This document shows, one piece after another, positions 3,927 to 14,365 of a stretch of DNA of 14,365 nucleotides. The notes beneath the pieces are model-generated. The model was not told the DNA's origin, ran no database searches, and saw only the letters and a program-made list of their open reading frames with translations. Source of the stretch: a virus (taxonomy: Duplodnaviria > Heunggongvirae > Uroviricota > Caudoviricetes); IMG/VR virus record IMGVR_UViG_3300037420_000666, one strand, 5' to 3'. The position numbers were made by a program, and so were the translations under genes. Every line of letters begins with the position of its first letter. Position 1 is the first letter of the stretch.

Positions 3927-4592
3927 TCAGTGCACCCTCTTGAACTCCATGACCCACACCCACGGGTTCGCGCCCCATGAGCCGGCGCCGTTGATCTGCT
4001 CCCACAGCAGGCGATAGCCGCCCACGTAGTCGACCTCGGCCTCGTAGTGCGCGGCCATGCCGATGCGCTGCGCCGCGGCCTGTGCCTGACGGCTGCGCTC
4101 GGTCTGGTGCGTCGGGCACTTGCTCCACTCGACGCCTTCGGCGATGGCCTCGGCCCTGCTGCAGTCCTGCAGCCGCTCCACGCGCACGCTGGTCAGTTCC
4201 AGCGTGATGCGCGATGCCCAGCGGGGCATGTGGATCGAGGGGCGCCAAAACTCCATCGTGTCGCCCTCGTCCGCCGCGTAAATCACAGCAGAGCCGTCAG
4301 GGCGGCGCGACGGTATGTGGCGGTACACGTCATAACCACGCTCAAAGGCCTGCCACGTCTCGCGCACCCACAGTCGGTCGCCGGGTCGGCCGTAGGGACA
4401 CAGTTCGGCGGCCGCCTTCGGTCGCACCCACGACGGATCTGCAGGTTGCAGGCAGGCTGCCAGGCCCGGAGTGCGGTGCGTGATCTTCACGGCGCGCCGC
4501 GTCTGCGTCTTGGTGCCAGCCAGCAGCGCCCGCACCATCGGCGCGCTGAAGAGGATGGGGCGCTCGCGCGCCGCAGTGGTTGCGGCGCTCAT
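3927..4592 (-). CDS. Conserved phage protein, tentatively ASCH/PUA-like
   Basis: 221-aa ORF with ATG start and GAGG upstream. N-terminal ILFSAPMVRALLAGTKTQTRR resembles the ASCH G-x-K-x-x-x-R strand motif; assignment is from memory and tentative. Its start overlaps the stop of the upstream gene (4590-4596). Confidence 0.6.
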   Translation of the reverse strand: MSAATTAARERPILFSAPMVRALLAGTKTQTRRAVKITHRTPGLAACLQPADPSWVRPKAAAELCPYGRPGDRLWVRETWQAFERGYDVYRHIPSRRPDGSAVIYAADEGDTMEFWRPSIHMPRWASRITLELTSVRVERLQDCSRAEAIAEGVEWSKCPTHQTERSRQAQAAAQRIGMAAHYEAEVDYVGGYRLLWEQINGAGSWGANPWVWVMEFKRVH

Positions 4593-10848: not shown

Positions 10849-11006
10849 CTTTTTGTTTGGCGGCGCCTTATCTGCTCGATGTGAAAGGCCCGTCGGGTAG
10901 CGGGCGCAGGAGTGCTGTAGCGCGCCGCCGCACTGCGACGCGCGGCCTACTGCTTCACCGTCCACGCGCTGGCCCGCATTGCTGCGCAGCGCATTCCCCA
11001 GACGTG

Positions 11007-11028
11007 AAAAAGCCCGCACGAGGCGGGC
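11007..11028 (-). terminator. Intrinsic (rho-independent) terminator of the repressor/cargo transcript
   Basis: On the minus strand a GC stem GCCCGC(11023-11028)/GCGGGC(11012-11017) with a 5-nt loop is followed directly by UUUUU (top AAAAA 11007-11011). Lies about 30 nt downstream of the J-domain gene stop (11060) and upstream of the PL region. Confidence 0.55.
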
Positions 11029-11059
11029 GCTTGGCTTGGCAGTGCGGCGGCGGCAGTGC

Positions 11060-11590
11060 TTAGTTTCGTCCGATCCAGCGGATACCAAGCCAGGCCAAGC
11101 CCGAAAGCAATGGAAGCGACAAGTTCAGGGCCAGGAACCCGTTCTCGGTAAGGTTGTAGTCCCATCTCCAGATGACACCCCAGAGCTGCACAGCAACTAC
11201 CCACAGAATGCTGGCAACAATCCAGGCGCGTGTCCGTCGCCTGCACTGCTCGCGGATCGCCTTCAAGCGCACTTCTGGCTTGGCAGCCTCAAGCACCGAC
11301 AGCAGCTTGGCGTGCCCGCCTCCATCTGCATATCGAAGGTAAGCGTCGTACTTCTTGCGCCGCTCCGGGTCTCCGAGGGTGTGCAAGGCCTGCTGAGTGA
11401 GCGCATACCGGGCGGGCGCGTCCTTGCTGCCACAGCCCGTTTTTGGGTGGTAAGTGGCGCTGAAAAAGCTGTGCGCCATTTCTATGTAGTCTTGCGTGGC
11501 ATTCGGCTGTAAATCAAGAACTCGATAGAAATCAACGATTCCATCTGCCCTTTTGAACTCGTCTAATACACGCTGCGCATCCTCGTCCAT
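11060..11590 (-). CDS. Membrane-anchored J-domain (DnaJ-like) protein with HPK in place of HPD
   Basis: 176 aa. Residues about 20-85 align along the whole J-domain pattern (DFYRVLDLQPNATQDYIEMAHSFFSATYHPKTG...ALHTLGDPERRKKYDAYL versus DnaJ DYYEILGV...YHPDRN...AYEVLTDSQKRAAYDQYG). The tripeptide is HPK (codons CAC CCA AAA, top 11441-11449). Two C-terminal hydrophobic segments (AWIVASILWVVAVQLWGVIW, FLALNLSLPLLSGLAWLGIRWI). Lower GC than the flanks; in the repressor-cargo region. Confidence 0.75.
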   Translation of the reverse strand: MDEDAQRVLDEFKRADGIVDFYRVLDLQPNATQDYIEMAHSFFSATYHPKTGCGSKDAPARYALTQQALHTLGDPERRKKYDAYLRYADGGGHAKLLSVLEAAKPEVRLKAIREQCRRRTRAWIVASILWVVAVQLWGVIWRWDYNLTENGFLALNLSLPLLSGLAWLGIRWIGRN

Positions 11591-11645
11591 ACCGCTCCCT
11601 TGTGATTATATTTAGCGAATTAACCTGAAATCAGTTTCGAATTTC

Positions 11646-11657
11646 TCGAATATTCGA
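11646..11657. promoter_or_regulatory. Perfect 12-bp palindrome TCGAATATTCGA with adjacent TTCGAA, upstream of the J-domain gene
   Basis: Located in the AT-rich 78-bp spacer between the 77-aa ORF and the J-domain gene. A perfect TATAAT (minus strand, top 11605-11610) lies 14 nt upstream of that gene's ATG. Candidate regulator-binding site and internal promoter. Confidence 0.35.
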
Positions 11658-11668
11658 TTGCGAGTGAG

Positions 11669-11902
11669 TCAGCGTATTCGCTGAGCCAATTCATCATCAA
11701 GCGCAGCTAACATCCCGCGAGCAAATGTTGGATTCCGATGGGCTTCGCCGCTGGTATTTACAACGAACCCTCGTTGTTTTGTCATTGCGGCGTATGCGAC
11801 CCCTATCACTTCGCCTCGTTCCGCTCGCTCCAGAAGGTTTCTTAAGTCGGCCACCACGTCGTGTGGGGCCTCCTCCCGAACGAGGCGAAACGGAGGCTTC
11901 AT
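11669..11902 (-). CDS. Hypothetical 77-aa protein coupled to the repressor gene
   Basis: ATG overlaps the repressor stop (ATGA at 11899-11902) and is preceded by AAGGAAA. Sequence MKPPFRLVREEAPHDVVADLRNLLERAERGEVIGVAYAAMTKQRGFVVNTSGEAHRNPTFARGMLAALDDELAQRIR; no family recognised. Lower GC than the flanks. Confidence 0.55.
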   Translation of the reverse strand: MKPPFRLVREEAPHDVVADLRNLLERAERGEVIGVAYAAMTKQRGFVVNTSGEAHRNPTFARGMLAALDDELAQRIR

Positions 11903-12744
11903 GACTTCTTTTCCTTGCCGCTTTCATCGGTACGGATGATCCGCTCCATGCCCGGCATGGGGCGGTCGCTGAAGTACTTACCGCCGGGCGGCTGTTCCTT
12001 CTGAACCGGAACAGCGCGCGCGGTGCGCCCGATCCTTTCCAAGAATCGAGGCAATTCCTCCCGTGGTTTTATTTTTCGTGCCGGCACAGGGTGCGGCACG
12101 TAATAGACCCAAGTTACTTCGGTGGGGCTGAAACTTAAAACTTCCGGCGAGTTATAACTTCCAAATCTCCACCCGCCGCGCCGGCTCAGCAGTCGCTTGA
12201 GCATAGTCGAACCATCGGCCAAGCGCACAAGAACGTCATCCTCAAGATCGGGGTCGCTGCTTGGCTCGACTAGCGCATATTCGTTTGGCATGTATTTGGG
12301 GATCATCGAATCTCCGACGACCCGGCAGACAAACGCGTAATCGTCGCTGCTGAGCACCTCGGCAAATTCGGTGGCCTCCGAAAGCCAGTTGTCATCGAAT
12401 ATCCGCTCCGGCATTCCTCCCTGGCAGGTGCCGCACACGTAGACCGGGCGGACGCTGCGCGCCGGGAGTGTCTGAGGCGGAGCACTCTCTGTCGCAACCA
12501 TGACTGACAGGCCAGCACTGACCGTGCCCGGGTAGGCCGTCAGGCCCCAATGCTCCGGCCCAACCACATTTGCAAACAGAGCCCAGAGCCCCGGCAGCTT
12601 CTCCTTCGAGATGGTTCCGCGGTTCACCCAGTCCTGGATCGTCGGCGGCTTGACCCCGAAATGCTCCGCCAGGGCTTTCTTGGTGATGCCCTTTTTTAGT
12701 CTGGCCGCCTCGATGGCTTGCCCTAGTTCGATCCCGGTAAGCAT
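11899..12744 (-). CDS. CI/LexA-like prophage repressor (N-terminal XRE-type HTH, C-terminal S24 peptidase domain)
   Basis: 281 aa. N-terminal HTH (LGQAIEAARLKKGITKKALAEHFGVKPPTIQDWVNRG) and an S24 autoproteolysis domain with Ser and Lys motifs (VVGDSMIPKYMPNEYALV ... DGSTMLKRL). Carries an unusual ~60-aa C-terminal tail. Divergent from a Cro-like gene; AGGA lies 10 nt upstream of the ATG. Confidence 0.9.
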   Translation of the reverse strand: MLTGIELGQAIEAARLKKGITKKALAEHFGVKPPTIQDWVNRGTISKEKLPGLWALFANVVGPEHWGLTAYPGTVSAGLSVMVATESAPPQTLPARSVRPVYVCGTCQGGMPERIFDDNWLSEATEFAEVLSSDDYAFVCRVVGDSMIPKYMPNEYALVEPSSDPDLEDDVLVRLADGSTMLKRLLSRRGGWRFGSYNSPEVLSFSPTEVTWVYYVPHPVPARKIKPREELPRFLERIGRTARAVPVQKEQPPGGKYFSDRPMPGMERIIRTDESGKEKKS

Positions 12745-12819: not shown

Positions 12820-13119
12820 ATGAACGATCCCATCAACGACCTCGGCGGTCCGACTGCGGTGGCAAAGATGCTGTGCATCAAGGCCCCGTCCGTCGTCCAG
12901 TGGAAAGGCCGCATTCCGGCTGAACGGCGCGTGGACCTGGAGCGCGTCGCCTACCCCAAGTTCTGGGTTGAGCGCGCCGGCGACGACGTGCGCTGGCAGC
13001 GCGTGCCCGATCCCGAGTGGCCGCATCCCGATGGCCGCCCTTGTATCGACGTTGCCGCGATGCGCCCCCCGCTCCCCCAAGCCGCCGCCGCAGCTCCCCA
13101 GGCTGTGGCTGCGAGCTGA
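12820..13119 (+). CDS. Cro/YdaS-like HTH regulator
   Basis: 99 aa. DLGGPTAVAKMLCIKAPSVVQWKGRIPAERRVDLERV matches the YdaS/Cro-type HTH pattern (...QW..rG.iPaeR...iE..). Divergent from the repressor across the operator region. No Shine-Dalgarno upstream, so possibly leaderless. Confidence 0.75.
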   Translation: MNDPINDLGGPTAVAKMLCIKAPSVVQWKGRIPAERRVDLERVAYPKFWVERAGDDVRWQRVPDPEWPHPDGRPCIDVAAMRPPLPQAAAAAPQAVAAS

Positions 13120-13161: not shown

Positions 13162-13416
13162 ATGCAAATGCAACCGGAGGACATGCCGTCCATGAGCTCT
13201 GACCTTTGCGATTTCAGAGGGAAGCTGACAGTCGAGGCCATGGCCATGCTGGAAGGCGAGGCCGCGGTTACCGGCGACGACAAGTCGGTGATCGCCCGCA
13301 GGGTGCTTCACGCCTGGGCCATGAGAAAGATGCATGCCCACAAGATCGCGCAACGCTGGCTTGCCGTCGAGGGACATGCGACGCCCGAACGGGGCGGTTC
13401 GGGGAGCCTGGCGTAA
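13162..13416 (+). CDS. Hypothetical early protein (CII-position)
   Basis: 84 aa, ATG at 13162 preceded by GAGAGGA. Its stop overlaps the next start (TAATG at 13414-13418). No family recognised. Confidence 0.55.
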   Translation: MQMQPEDMPSMSSDLCDFRGKLTVEAMAMLEGEAAVTGDDKSVIARRVLHAWAMRKMHAHKIAQRWLAVEGHATPERGGSGSLA

Positions 13417-13865
13417 TGGCCCGGCCGCGCATTACCCCGGCCTACAAGGCCCGGCGCCTGGAGCGCGAGCGCGCAGCCGAGTACCGCTTCGACGTGGATG
13501 CCTGGACAAAGGCCGCCGCCGAGACGCTGAGCATTCCGGCAGAGCACGTCGGGCTGACGGCCAGCGAGATCGAGGCGCTACCCGTGCCGGCTGCCCGCAG
13601 TGGTGTCCAACTCGTGTGCGCCGGCCCGGGCTGCGAGGAGTGCTTCAGCGCAGTGGCATCGGCGATTCGACAGCCATCTCGTACATGTGGGTCACCGTGC
13701 CCCAGCCCTGCAGCGGGTGAAGCCACTGCGACTCCAGCTGGATCGCGACCGCCGGGCTGTTTGCTCCATCTGGCTCCTCGCGCCACTCCAGTACCGCAAG
13801 AGGCGGCTGACCCGGCTCAAGCAGCAGATCCACGTTGTAGTGGGCCGTTTGGCCCGCGTGGGTGA
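13416..13865 (+). CDS. Hypothetical protein, 3' end uncertain
   Basis: ATG at 13416 is coupled to the previous stop. Codons up to about 13640 show strong G/C at third positions and a protein-like product (MARPRITPAYKARRLERERAAEYRFDVDAWTKAAAETLSIPAEHVGLTASEIEALPVPAA...). Beyond about 13645 third-position GC collapses and the product becomes P/A/G low complexity, so the true C-terminus is probably earlier or a frameshift is present. Confidence 0.35.
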   Translation: MARPRITPAYKARRLERERAAEYRFDVDAWTKAAAETLSIPAEHVGLTASEIEALPVPAARSGVQLVCAGPGCEECFSAVASAIRQPSRTCGSPCPSPAAGEATATPAGSRPPGCLLHLAPRATPVPQEAADPAQAADPRCSGPFGPRG

Positions 13866-13893
13866 GAAGTATGCGAACCTTCTTGACTTCCAT
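13645..13893 (-). CDS. Hypothetical 82-aa protein (convergent)
   Basis: ATG at 13893 is preceded by GGGAGGG at ideal spacing. Third codon positions are almost all G/C and the product is protein-like (MEVKKVRILLTHAGQTAHYNVDLLLEPGQPPLAVLEWREEPDGANSPAVAIQLESQW...). Confidence 0.5.
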   Translation of the reverse strand: MEVKKVRILLTHAGQTAHYNVDLLLEPGQPPLAVLEWREEPDGANSPAVAIQLESQWLHPLQGWGTVTHMYEMAVESPMPLR

Positions 13894-13974
13894 GGGGGCC
13901 CTCCCTGGGCTGGTGTGTGTAGGAGCCGCCAGCGTAACCGGGGAAGGGCGCCCGCCCTTCGCAGGGAGGCGCGC

Positions 13975-14365
13975 ATGACGCGCCCCCGCATTCCTGGCGG
14001 CAAGACCGACCGCCTGCTGTCTGCCCTGGCCACGCTGAAGCCTGGGCAGGTCATGACATCTGCCGAGCTGGCCGTGGCCGCAGGCGTCGAGTCGCCCCAG
14101 ATCCGCGCGCTGCTGCGCTACAGCATCGAGCAGGGCCGCGTGATCGTGAGCGCAACGAGCCCGCGCCGGCAGACGTATCGCCTGGGCGAGCCGGGCACGG
14201 CCGCTGCGCCCGCACCGAAGGCCGAGGCCAAGCCGGCCCAGGCCGAGGGCGGCTGCAAGCGCGGGCCGCGCGGCAAGACCATCACGGAGCCCTGGACCCC
14301 GCGCAAGGCGGGGAAGCCGGTCACGCCGGCAGCTGAGCAGGCCCGCGATGCCGCCATACCACCAG
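13975..14365 (+). CDS. Hypothetical protein with winged-helix-like N-terminus, 3'-truncated by the window edge
   Basis: Not in the supplied ORF track because it has no stop within the window. ATG at 13975 preceded by GGAGG with a 5-nt spacer. My translation: MTRPRIPGGKTDRLLSALATLKPGQVMTSAELAVAAGVESPQIRALLRYSIEQGRVIVSATSPRRQTYRLGEPGTAAAPAPKAEAKPAQAEGG... Third positions are G/C-rich throughout. Confidence 0.55.
   Translation, partial: MTRPRIPGGKTDRLLSALATLKPGQVMTSAELAVAAGVESPQIRALLRYSIEQGRVIVSATSPRRQTYRLGEPGTAAAPAPKAEAKPAQAEGGCKRGPRGKTITEPWTPRKAGKPVTPAAEQARDAAIPP

Follow-up and report, generated by a model that had tools for sequence, protein, structure and literature searches.

The window, i.e. 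the whole stretch of 14,365 nucleotides that was analysed, is the reverse complement of part of the JGI contig Ga0395908_0000467 (45 kb, sample 3300037313), and has a GC content of about 68% (0.680). It is the immunity and early region of a temperate phage. A CI-like repressor gene, recognised by matches to HTH and S24 peptidase domains, lies on the minus strand at 11899-12744 and is followed on the plus strand by cro (12820-13119) and by an early gene for a protein of 84 aa, named ORF84 here (13162-13416; the JGI call starts at 13168 and gives 82 aa), which has homologues with 78% and 88% identity and a codon score of +0.27. At the right end, a gene for a protein of 169 aa, also called by JGI, starts at 13975 on the plus strand and exits the window at 14365; on the contig it is followed by a gene for 286 aa and then by a DnaB gene, both rightward. 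The features described below are located in this early rightward operon, between ORF84 and the 169-aa gene. Further upstream, GC content falls to 0.52-0.61 over 11001-12500, compared with about 0.69 elsewhere; this segment spans the CI-like repressor and its neighbour, a gene for a 176-aa DnaJ-domain protein on the minus strand (11060-11590).

Two open reading frames face each other in this interval. The plus-strand ORF, indicated as P, encodes 149 aa (13416-13865, with its ATG at 13416 and its TGA at 13863-13865). Its ATG overlaps the TAA of ORF84 in the string TAATG, and a Shine-Dalgarno-like GGGGAG is found at 13401-13406, 9 nt before the ATG. The minus-strand ORF, called by JGI, encodes 82 aa and runs from 13893 to 13645; it is preceded, 5 nt before its ATG, by the ribosome-binding site GGGAGGG (minus strand, 13899-13905), the core of which is kept in 15 related leaders. 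The two ORFs overlap over 221 nt (13645-13865).

An earlier note on this DNA had described a loss of third-position GC bias (GC3) in P near 13645, in a frame open to 13865, opposite a minus ORF with gene-like composition and a strong ribosome-binding site. The frame-specific GC3 analysis which it had suggested was carried out and bears out this description. GC at the three codon positions in the plus frame is 0.73/0.58/0.86 over 13416-13644 and 0.73/0.78/0.45 over 13644-13865, the corresponding values for the minus ORF are 0.72/0.41/0.76, and sliding windows place the switch of GC3 between 13641 and 13670. A log-odds score of codon usage, with 14 genes of this contig as the training set, is concordant: over 13416-13600 the plus frame scores +0.77 bits/codon, the top value of the six frames and above that of cro (+0.30), while over 13648-13893 the frame of the minus ORF scores +0.38 and that of the plus ORF -1.28, the lowest of six. 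The switch of the coding signal between strands far exceeds chance; the openness of the plus frame alone does not.

The minus ORF is, by its homologues and by the pattern of its substitutions, a real gene. Homologues of its product were found in unrelated samples (P0002, 65% identity, and P0003, 54%). In an alignment of three sequences, differences at codon positions 1, 2 and 3 amount to 0.24, 0.17 and 0.57, with Nei-Gojobori dN/dS of 0.17-0.46 and dS of 0.8-1.6. No match to the protein was obtained in Pfam, PHROG, PADLOC, NCBIfam or PDB sequences, its AF2 model (pLDDT 46) is too poor for a fold search, and neither profile scans of viral and genome contigs nor scans of viral and metagenome contigs with the DNA pattern for GQ[PA]PLAVLEW revealed further homologues. 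The fold detected downstream of the gene does not exceed shuffled sequence in stability and lacks a counterpart in the related contig L002.

The part of P lying antisense to the minus gene (13647-13865, 73 codons and the TGA) has a different standing. When the same three-sequence alignment is read in the plus frame, dN/dS rises to 1.45-3.3, and the minus gene shows no suppression of synonymous change (dS 0.82-1.58, third positions differing at 45-57% of codons). In this frame plus position 1 pairs with minus position 1, and a stop results wherever TT|A, CT|A or TC|A spans a codon boundary of the minus strand. Stops of this kind occur at 2.3% of codons in 15 genes of the contig, which corresponds to a probability of 0.18 for 74 open codons; when the minus protein is kept fixed and its synonymous codons are redrawn, the probability that the frame stays open this far is 0.51 for the window, 0.24 for L002 and 0.46 for L003. 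Since openness is thus expected by chance (P 0.18-0.51), the open tail frame needs no special explanation. The TGA which finally closes P at 13863 corresponds, on the opposite strand, to CTC|A at Leu10-Thr11 of the minus protein.

Set against what marks dual coding, both frames are open, but purifying selection is not found in both and P is not longer than expected by chance. By these values, only the leftward gene is kept by selection in the overlap, and the tail of P appears as a tolerated by-product. It is very unlikely that the tail of P, or at least its first 15-20 codons including a fourth Cys (SRTC), is functional and overprinted on the minus gene. In agreement with such overprinting, the window, L002 and L003 all have a plus frame that stays open opposite the minus gene, the fourth Cys is common to the window and L002, and the conserved motif described below adjoins the overlap; the fourth Cys, however, is the antisense of an invariant THMYE in the minus protein and is replaced by Gly in L003, and the plus-frame dN/dS, the unsuppressed synonymous divergence of the minus gene, the openness expected given the minus protein (P 0.24-0.51) and the codon score of the tail all argue against it. 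The possibility, raised in the earlier note, of two genes truly overlapping in antisense for about 220 nt holds for the ORFs, and probably for their translation, and fails for a selected coding pair, purifying selection being confined to the minus frame. Long antisense 'shadow' ORFs opposite real genes are known from GC-rich genomes (Mir et al. 2012, PMC3454372). The tail resembles them as a long stop-free frame, antisense to a real gene in a GC-rich genome and dropped by gene callers, but differs in being entered from a gene-like ORF with its own coupled start. Antisense ORFs of Pseudomonas have been claimed as functional and reported to be under purifying selection (PMC8850804), unlike the present case, where selection tests in the shadow frame are negative.

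The same note had alternatively proposed that a frameshift or sequencing error conceals the end of the plus gene near 13645. The coding signal does stop abruptly at about 13646, and a single assembly covers 13564-13974, the otherwise matching contig L024 ending at 13563. There is, however, no stop in any plus frame over 13556-13717, and the other two frames reach their first stops at 13718 and beyond 13960; as no plus-frame stop is nearby, a one-base indel cannot end the gene near 13645. Moreover, in L002, an independent assembly about 70% identical at the nucleotide level, a plus-type ORF likewise crosses the whole homologous minus gene with no stop at that point, and in the window the minus gene is intact through the region. 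An assembly or sequencing error, be it an indel or a base, that erased the true end of the plus gene around 13640-13660 is therefore extremely improbable.

P itself is chimeric, being formed by 7 captured codons, about 70 gene-like codons and the 73-codon run-on tail, and is gene-like only up to about 13646. Homologues of P were absent from searches of 5.8 billion proteins, with the 149-aa sequence as query, and of 1.84 billion representatives, and its first 77 aa retrieved only low-complexity matches to long proteins. The earlier note had taken a plus protein conserved at full length, facing a minus ORF devoid of homologues, as the outcome that would speak against its reading; the reverse was observed, homologues being found for the minus protein and none for P. 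In the JGI annotation of the full contig P is not called and 13417-13644 is left without a gene; a partial P is called as a gene on L024, where the contig ends at window position 13563. The AF2 model of P has an overall pLDDT of 51, too poor for a fold search, with low values beyond residues 1-30 and 33-49 in the tail. Similarity to the 169-aa protein is confined to residues 1-15. An alignment to Cro-like proteins (33% over 67 aa, E=0.013 in a single comparison) is weak and serves as a lead only.

Evidence for selection in the plus frame comes from a Cys motif at its gene-like end, RSGVQLVCAGPGCEECF (13596-13646), whose counterpart in L002 is RSGVELVCAGPNCHRCW. The two segments differ at 18 of 51 nt and share 12 of 17 aa, the best agreement of the six frames; in a permutation test on this single sequence pair of 17 codons, 6.2 identical residues were obtained on average and none of 20000 permutations reached 12. 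The identical residues include a Ser encoded by AGT in one sequence and by TCC in the other. Judged from this comparison, 13596-13646 is the last stretch of P with evidence of selection. In L002 the motif sits in the 48-nt spacer after cro and is preceded by just 5 codons, which is odd for a real protein. Scanning viral contigs with the plus-motif pattern gave no match. A terminator or RNA structure was also considered as the source of the conservation of 13596-13646 and was rejected, because the segment folds no better than shuffled sequence and the structure is absent from L002.

As a separate observation, at 1271-1277 of L002 the TGA of the Cro-like gene is followed after one base by the ATG of an antisense ORF of 102 aa (TGAgATG). 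This ORF bears the conserved Cys motif, and the geometry could permit translational coupling.

From these thin data, translation of P is probable, and so is selection, present or recent, on its first 77 residues. A P devoid of function, i.e. a translated or untranslated relic made of a donor-gene fragment on a displaced start, whose coding signal has not yet decayed, is rather unlikely. It would agree with the missing homologues, the chimeric start, the unconstrained tail, the lack of a JGI call over 13417-13644 and the low AF2 confidence past residues 1-30; it is hard to reconcile with a codon score of +0.77 bits/codon, above that of neighbouring real genes, and with a motif which holds 12 of 17 residues at 35% nucleotide divergence from L002, including the Ser AGT/TCC switch.

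The origin of the chimera emerged from contigs reached via homologues of ORF84 (L022, L019 and L024), and lies beyond what the earlier note could see: the whole interval 13437-13974 is an indel relative to a sibling phage. In contig L022 (sample 3300037423) the same TAATG joins ORF84 to the 169-aa gene with nothing in between. Positions 15-274 of L022 correspond to window 13177-13436 (85% identity) and 254-644 to window 13975-14365 (92% nucleotide identity), and the junction alignment shows 538 bp of the window to be absent from the sibling. An imperfect direct repeat of 21 bp borders this module: the left copy, ATGGCCCGGCCGCGCATTACC (13416-13436, plus strand, translated as MARPRIT), matches the start of the gene in L022 at 21 of 21 positions, and the right copy, ATGACGCGCCCCCGCATTCCT (13975-13995, plus strand, MTRPRIP), matches the left one at 15 of 21. 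ATGGCCCGGCCGCGCATTACC is thus the original start of the 169-aa gene, which in the window has a diverged duplicate start. The junctions are exact after codon 7, past which L022 reads like the 169-aa gene of the window. The GGGGAG at 13401-13406 serves the 169-aa gene in L022; in the window its place is taken by a replacement Shine-Dalgarno sequence, GGGAGG (13964-13969, plus strand), identified from the sequence and the junction alignment. The indel and the repeat are consistent with an insertion accompanied by duplication of the start, or with a deletion between repeats in L022. The start of the 169-aa gene, used as a pattern, gave no match in viral contigs, and no duplicated gene start beside cassettes elsewhere was found by blastn-short, a search which also missed the window's own repeat.

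L024, which shares its sample with L022, matches the window at 100% identity until it ends at 13563, which implies that forms with and without the module coexist. The slot itself is variable, being occupied by a different gene in L019, a contig of more distant relationship: at 4294-4476 of this contig (and in L020 and L021), between the ORF84 homologue and a replication-region gene, lies a Cys-rich ORF of 60 aa (GVWLSCGKCGKH...HVCC), a positional analogue of P. The comparison between P and the L019 protein was not significant.

The arrangement is best explained by an ordinary cause, a moron-like insertion with a run-on ORF, and it is quite probable that a module of this kind entered the start of a gene, that the displaced start captured the incoming DNA, and that the resulting ORF runs on in antisense. 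According to this reconstruction, the 538 bp (13437-13974) would have been placed, relative to the sibling, after codon 7 of the 169-aa gene, carrying the leftward gene of the cassette (13645-13893) behind its conserved 64-nt leader, a rightward coding stretch of about 70 codons, and a diverged copy of the first 7 codons with a new Shine-Dalgarno sequence, by which the 169-aa gene would be restored. The displaced original Shine-Dalgarno sequence, the TAATG coupling to ORF84 and the MARPRIT codons would now drive the rightward insert, giving rise to the chimeric P. Because P lacks a stop of its own, ribosomes that translate the early rightward mRNA would read through the cassette in antisense up to the first chance TGA, at 13863.

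Like phage morons (as defined in PMC3594210), the module is extra DNA between conserved genes, absent from a close relative, and contains a small accessory gene for which independent expression is possible. The minus gene is the cargo of the cassette, and the cassette is inferred to be transcribed on its own. It departs from morons in several respects: its GC content (0.686) equals that of its surroundings (0.668 and 0.739 in the flanks, 0.680 in the window); no terminator-like site was found for the cassette; and the module opposes the direction of the operon, sits inside the first codons of a gene and duplicates that start. A search of the cassette for a sigma-70 consensus promoter gave no match.

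The 64-nt leader of the minus gene (13894-13957, minus strand) contains the 12-mer GGGCGGGCGCCC (13946-13957), the invariant TACGCTGGCGG and the GGGAGGG site. It is more conserved than the gene that it precedes, with conservation starting sharply at GGGCGGGCGCCC and stopping at the ATG. Pattern scans detected it in 7 viral contigs, 1 Lysobacterales MAG and 7 metagenome contigs. The copies include those of the window, L002 (891-954), L003 (1271-1335) and L004 (6863-6930 and 7331-7398), along with L005, L006, L008, L009, L011 (two copies), L012, L013, L015, L016 and L017. In 15 copies, 64-68 nt long, 41 columns are invariant, and the invariant sequence includes TACGCT (TAnnnT), with no -35 element. 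At least 13 small ORFs (61-118 aa), unrelated to one another, have the leader directly before their ATG, which always lies 13-14 nt past the search pattern. None of ten cargo proteins scanned has a known function. No match to the leader was found in Rfam, isolated phages or plasmids, searches of INPHARED phages and PLSDB plasmids gave no match for the region, the leader or the minus protein, and a literature search with the core sequence returned only irrelevant matches.

A common secondary structure is predicted for the leaders. RNAalifold folds them into a long hairpin, whose outer helix pairs GG[G/U]CGCCC with GGGCG[C/A]CC just before the AUG, and single leader sequences fold alike; in three copies the outer helix shows a covariation of G-C to U-A. 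In an alignment of 19 copies, fitted to the structure model and therefore favouring the structure, pairing holds in 94.7% of cells and double changes are seen in 5 pairs, a result matched by none of 500 shuffles, with slid controls giving 31-49%. The predicted hairpin probably sequesters the Shine-Dalgarno sequence. A covariance model revealed further, diverged copies and tandem cassettes.

The nearest described analogue of the leader is represented by the SAS/ESAS sequences of Cluster K mycobacteriophages, which share a 13-bp consensus, GGGATAGGAGCCC, found in many copies per genome (PMC3203893). The resemblance concerns the leader alone: in both cases a conserved sequence containing a Shine-Dalgarno motif abuts the ATG of unrelated, non-structural genes and is associated with an upstream inverted repeat. 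The sequences themselves are different, GGGATAGGAGCCC being absent from the leader, which is 64 nt long as compared with 13 bp; the leader is present in 1-2 copies per contig versus dozens; and its phages are from GC-rich Proteobacteria, with one copy in a Lysobacterales MAG, rather than mycobacteriophages. In the fold-back inhibition of IS10, an upstream arm pairs with the ribosome-binding region, so that read-through transcripts started upstream are translated poorly. The upstream arm of the leader is similarly predicted to be able to pair with the ribosome-binding region, which would reduce translation of transcripts begun further upstream, the difference being that no transposase is present here. 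The leader may be an undescribed cis-regulatory RNA, which would gate the translation of diverse small phage accessory genes.

The convergent geometry could also be functional in itself, in that a leftward RNA, antisense to the 3' part of P and to the early rightward mRNA, would damp expression of early and replication genes, as lambda oop RNA does on the cII-O mRNA. Cassettes with the leader lie between cro and the replication genes in the window and in four other contigs, L002, L004, L005 and L016; judged by Cro-like C-termini, the same would hold for L013 and L015. In these other contigs they are convergent with cro and follow it immediately. In lambda, oop RNA is described as antisense to the cII 3' end and as acting on the cII-O mRNA via RNase III (Krinke and Wulff 1987, 1990, cited in PMC5869508). 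The present unit has in common with oop its leftward orientation, its location and its complementarity to the 3' end of an early rightward ORF. However, oop RNA is short and non-coding and has its promoter and terminator defined, while the leftward unit here encodes a conserved 82-aa protein. A search for a promoter or terminator of the cassette identified none. In addition, cargo ORFs are protein-coding, the one tested being under selection, and most cassettes elsewhere do not overlap the convergent gene, from which they are separated by gaps of 3-237 nt. On the whole an antisense function appears doubtful. It is quite unlikely that the module is a conserved convergent two-gene unit, pairing the cassette protein of 82 aa with a small protein that bears a Cys motif (CX4CX2C, and a fourth Cys encoded in the overlap), in which the C-terminus of the plus protein was overprinted on the antisense strand of the cassette gene and convergent transcription couples expression.

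As for annotation, the minus gene is to be kept, and the region should not carry a sequencing-error flag; an entry for the plus ORF, should one be made, ought to describe a chimeric ORF whose run-on tail is unselected rather than a conserved protein of 149 aa. Read as a moron-like insertion, the locus offers a clean natural example of how an accessory module within a gene start gives a new ORF through captured translation signals, and the frame which runs into the antisense strand of a neighbour provides raw material for de novo C-termini. The leader, common to many unrelated small genes near cro, may mark a hotspot of accessory ORFans in uncultured phages, and the fact that it is shared hints at what may be a common mode of translational control.

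Cassettes occur in tandem pairs in L003 (839-1596), L004 (6508-7398), L005 (1075-1586), L006 (5352-5919) and L011 (2779-3361). The second copies are more diverged (23-85 bits), and the segment 839-917 of L003 keeps just both GGGCGCCC arms around a different centre. In the window, L013, L015 and L017, the Shine-Dalgarno sequence and ATG of the divergent gene are only 17-22 nt from the palindrome or 12-mer of the leader, a spacing too short to accommodate separate promoters. In L013 and L017, as well as in L016, where the distance is about 135 nt greater, the divergent gene begins with MS[LI][DE]RKD[LV]R and resembles the ORF84 type, possibly ribbon-helix-helix.
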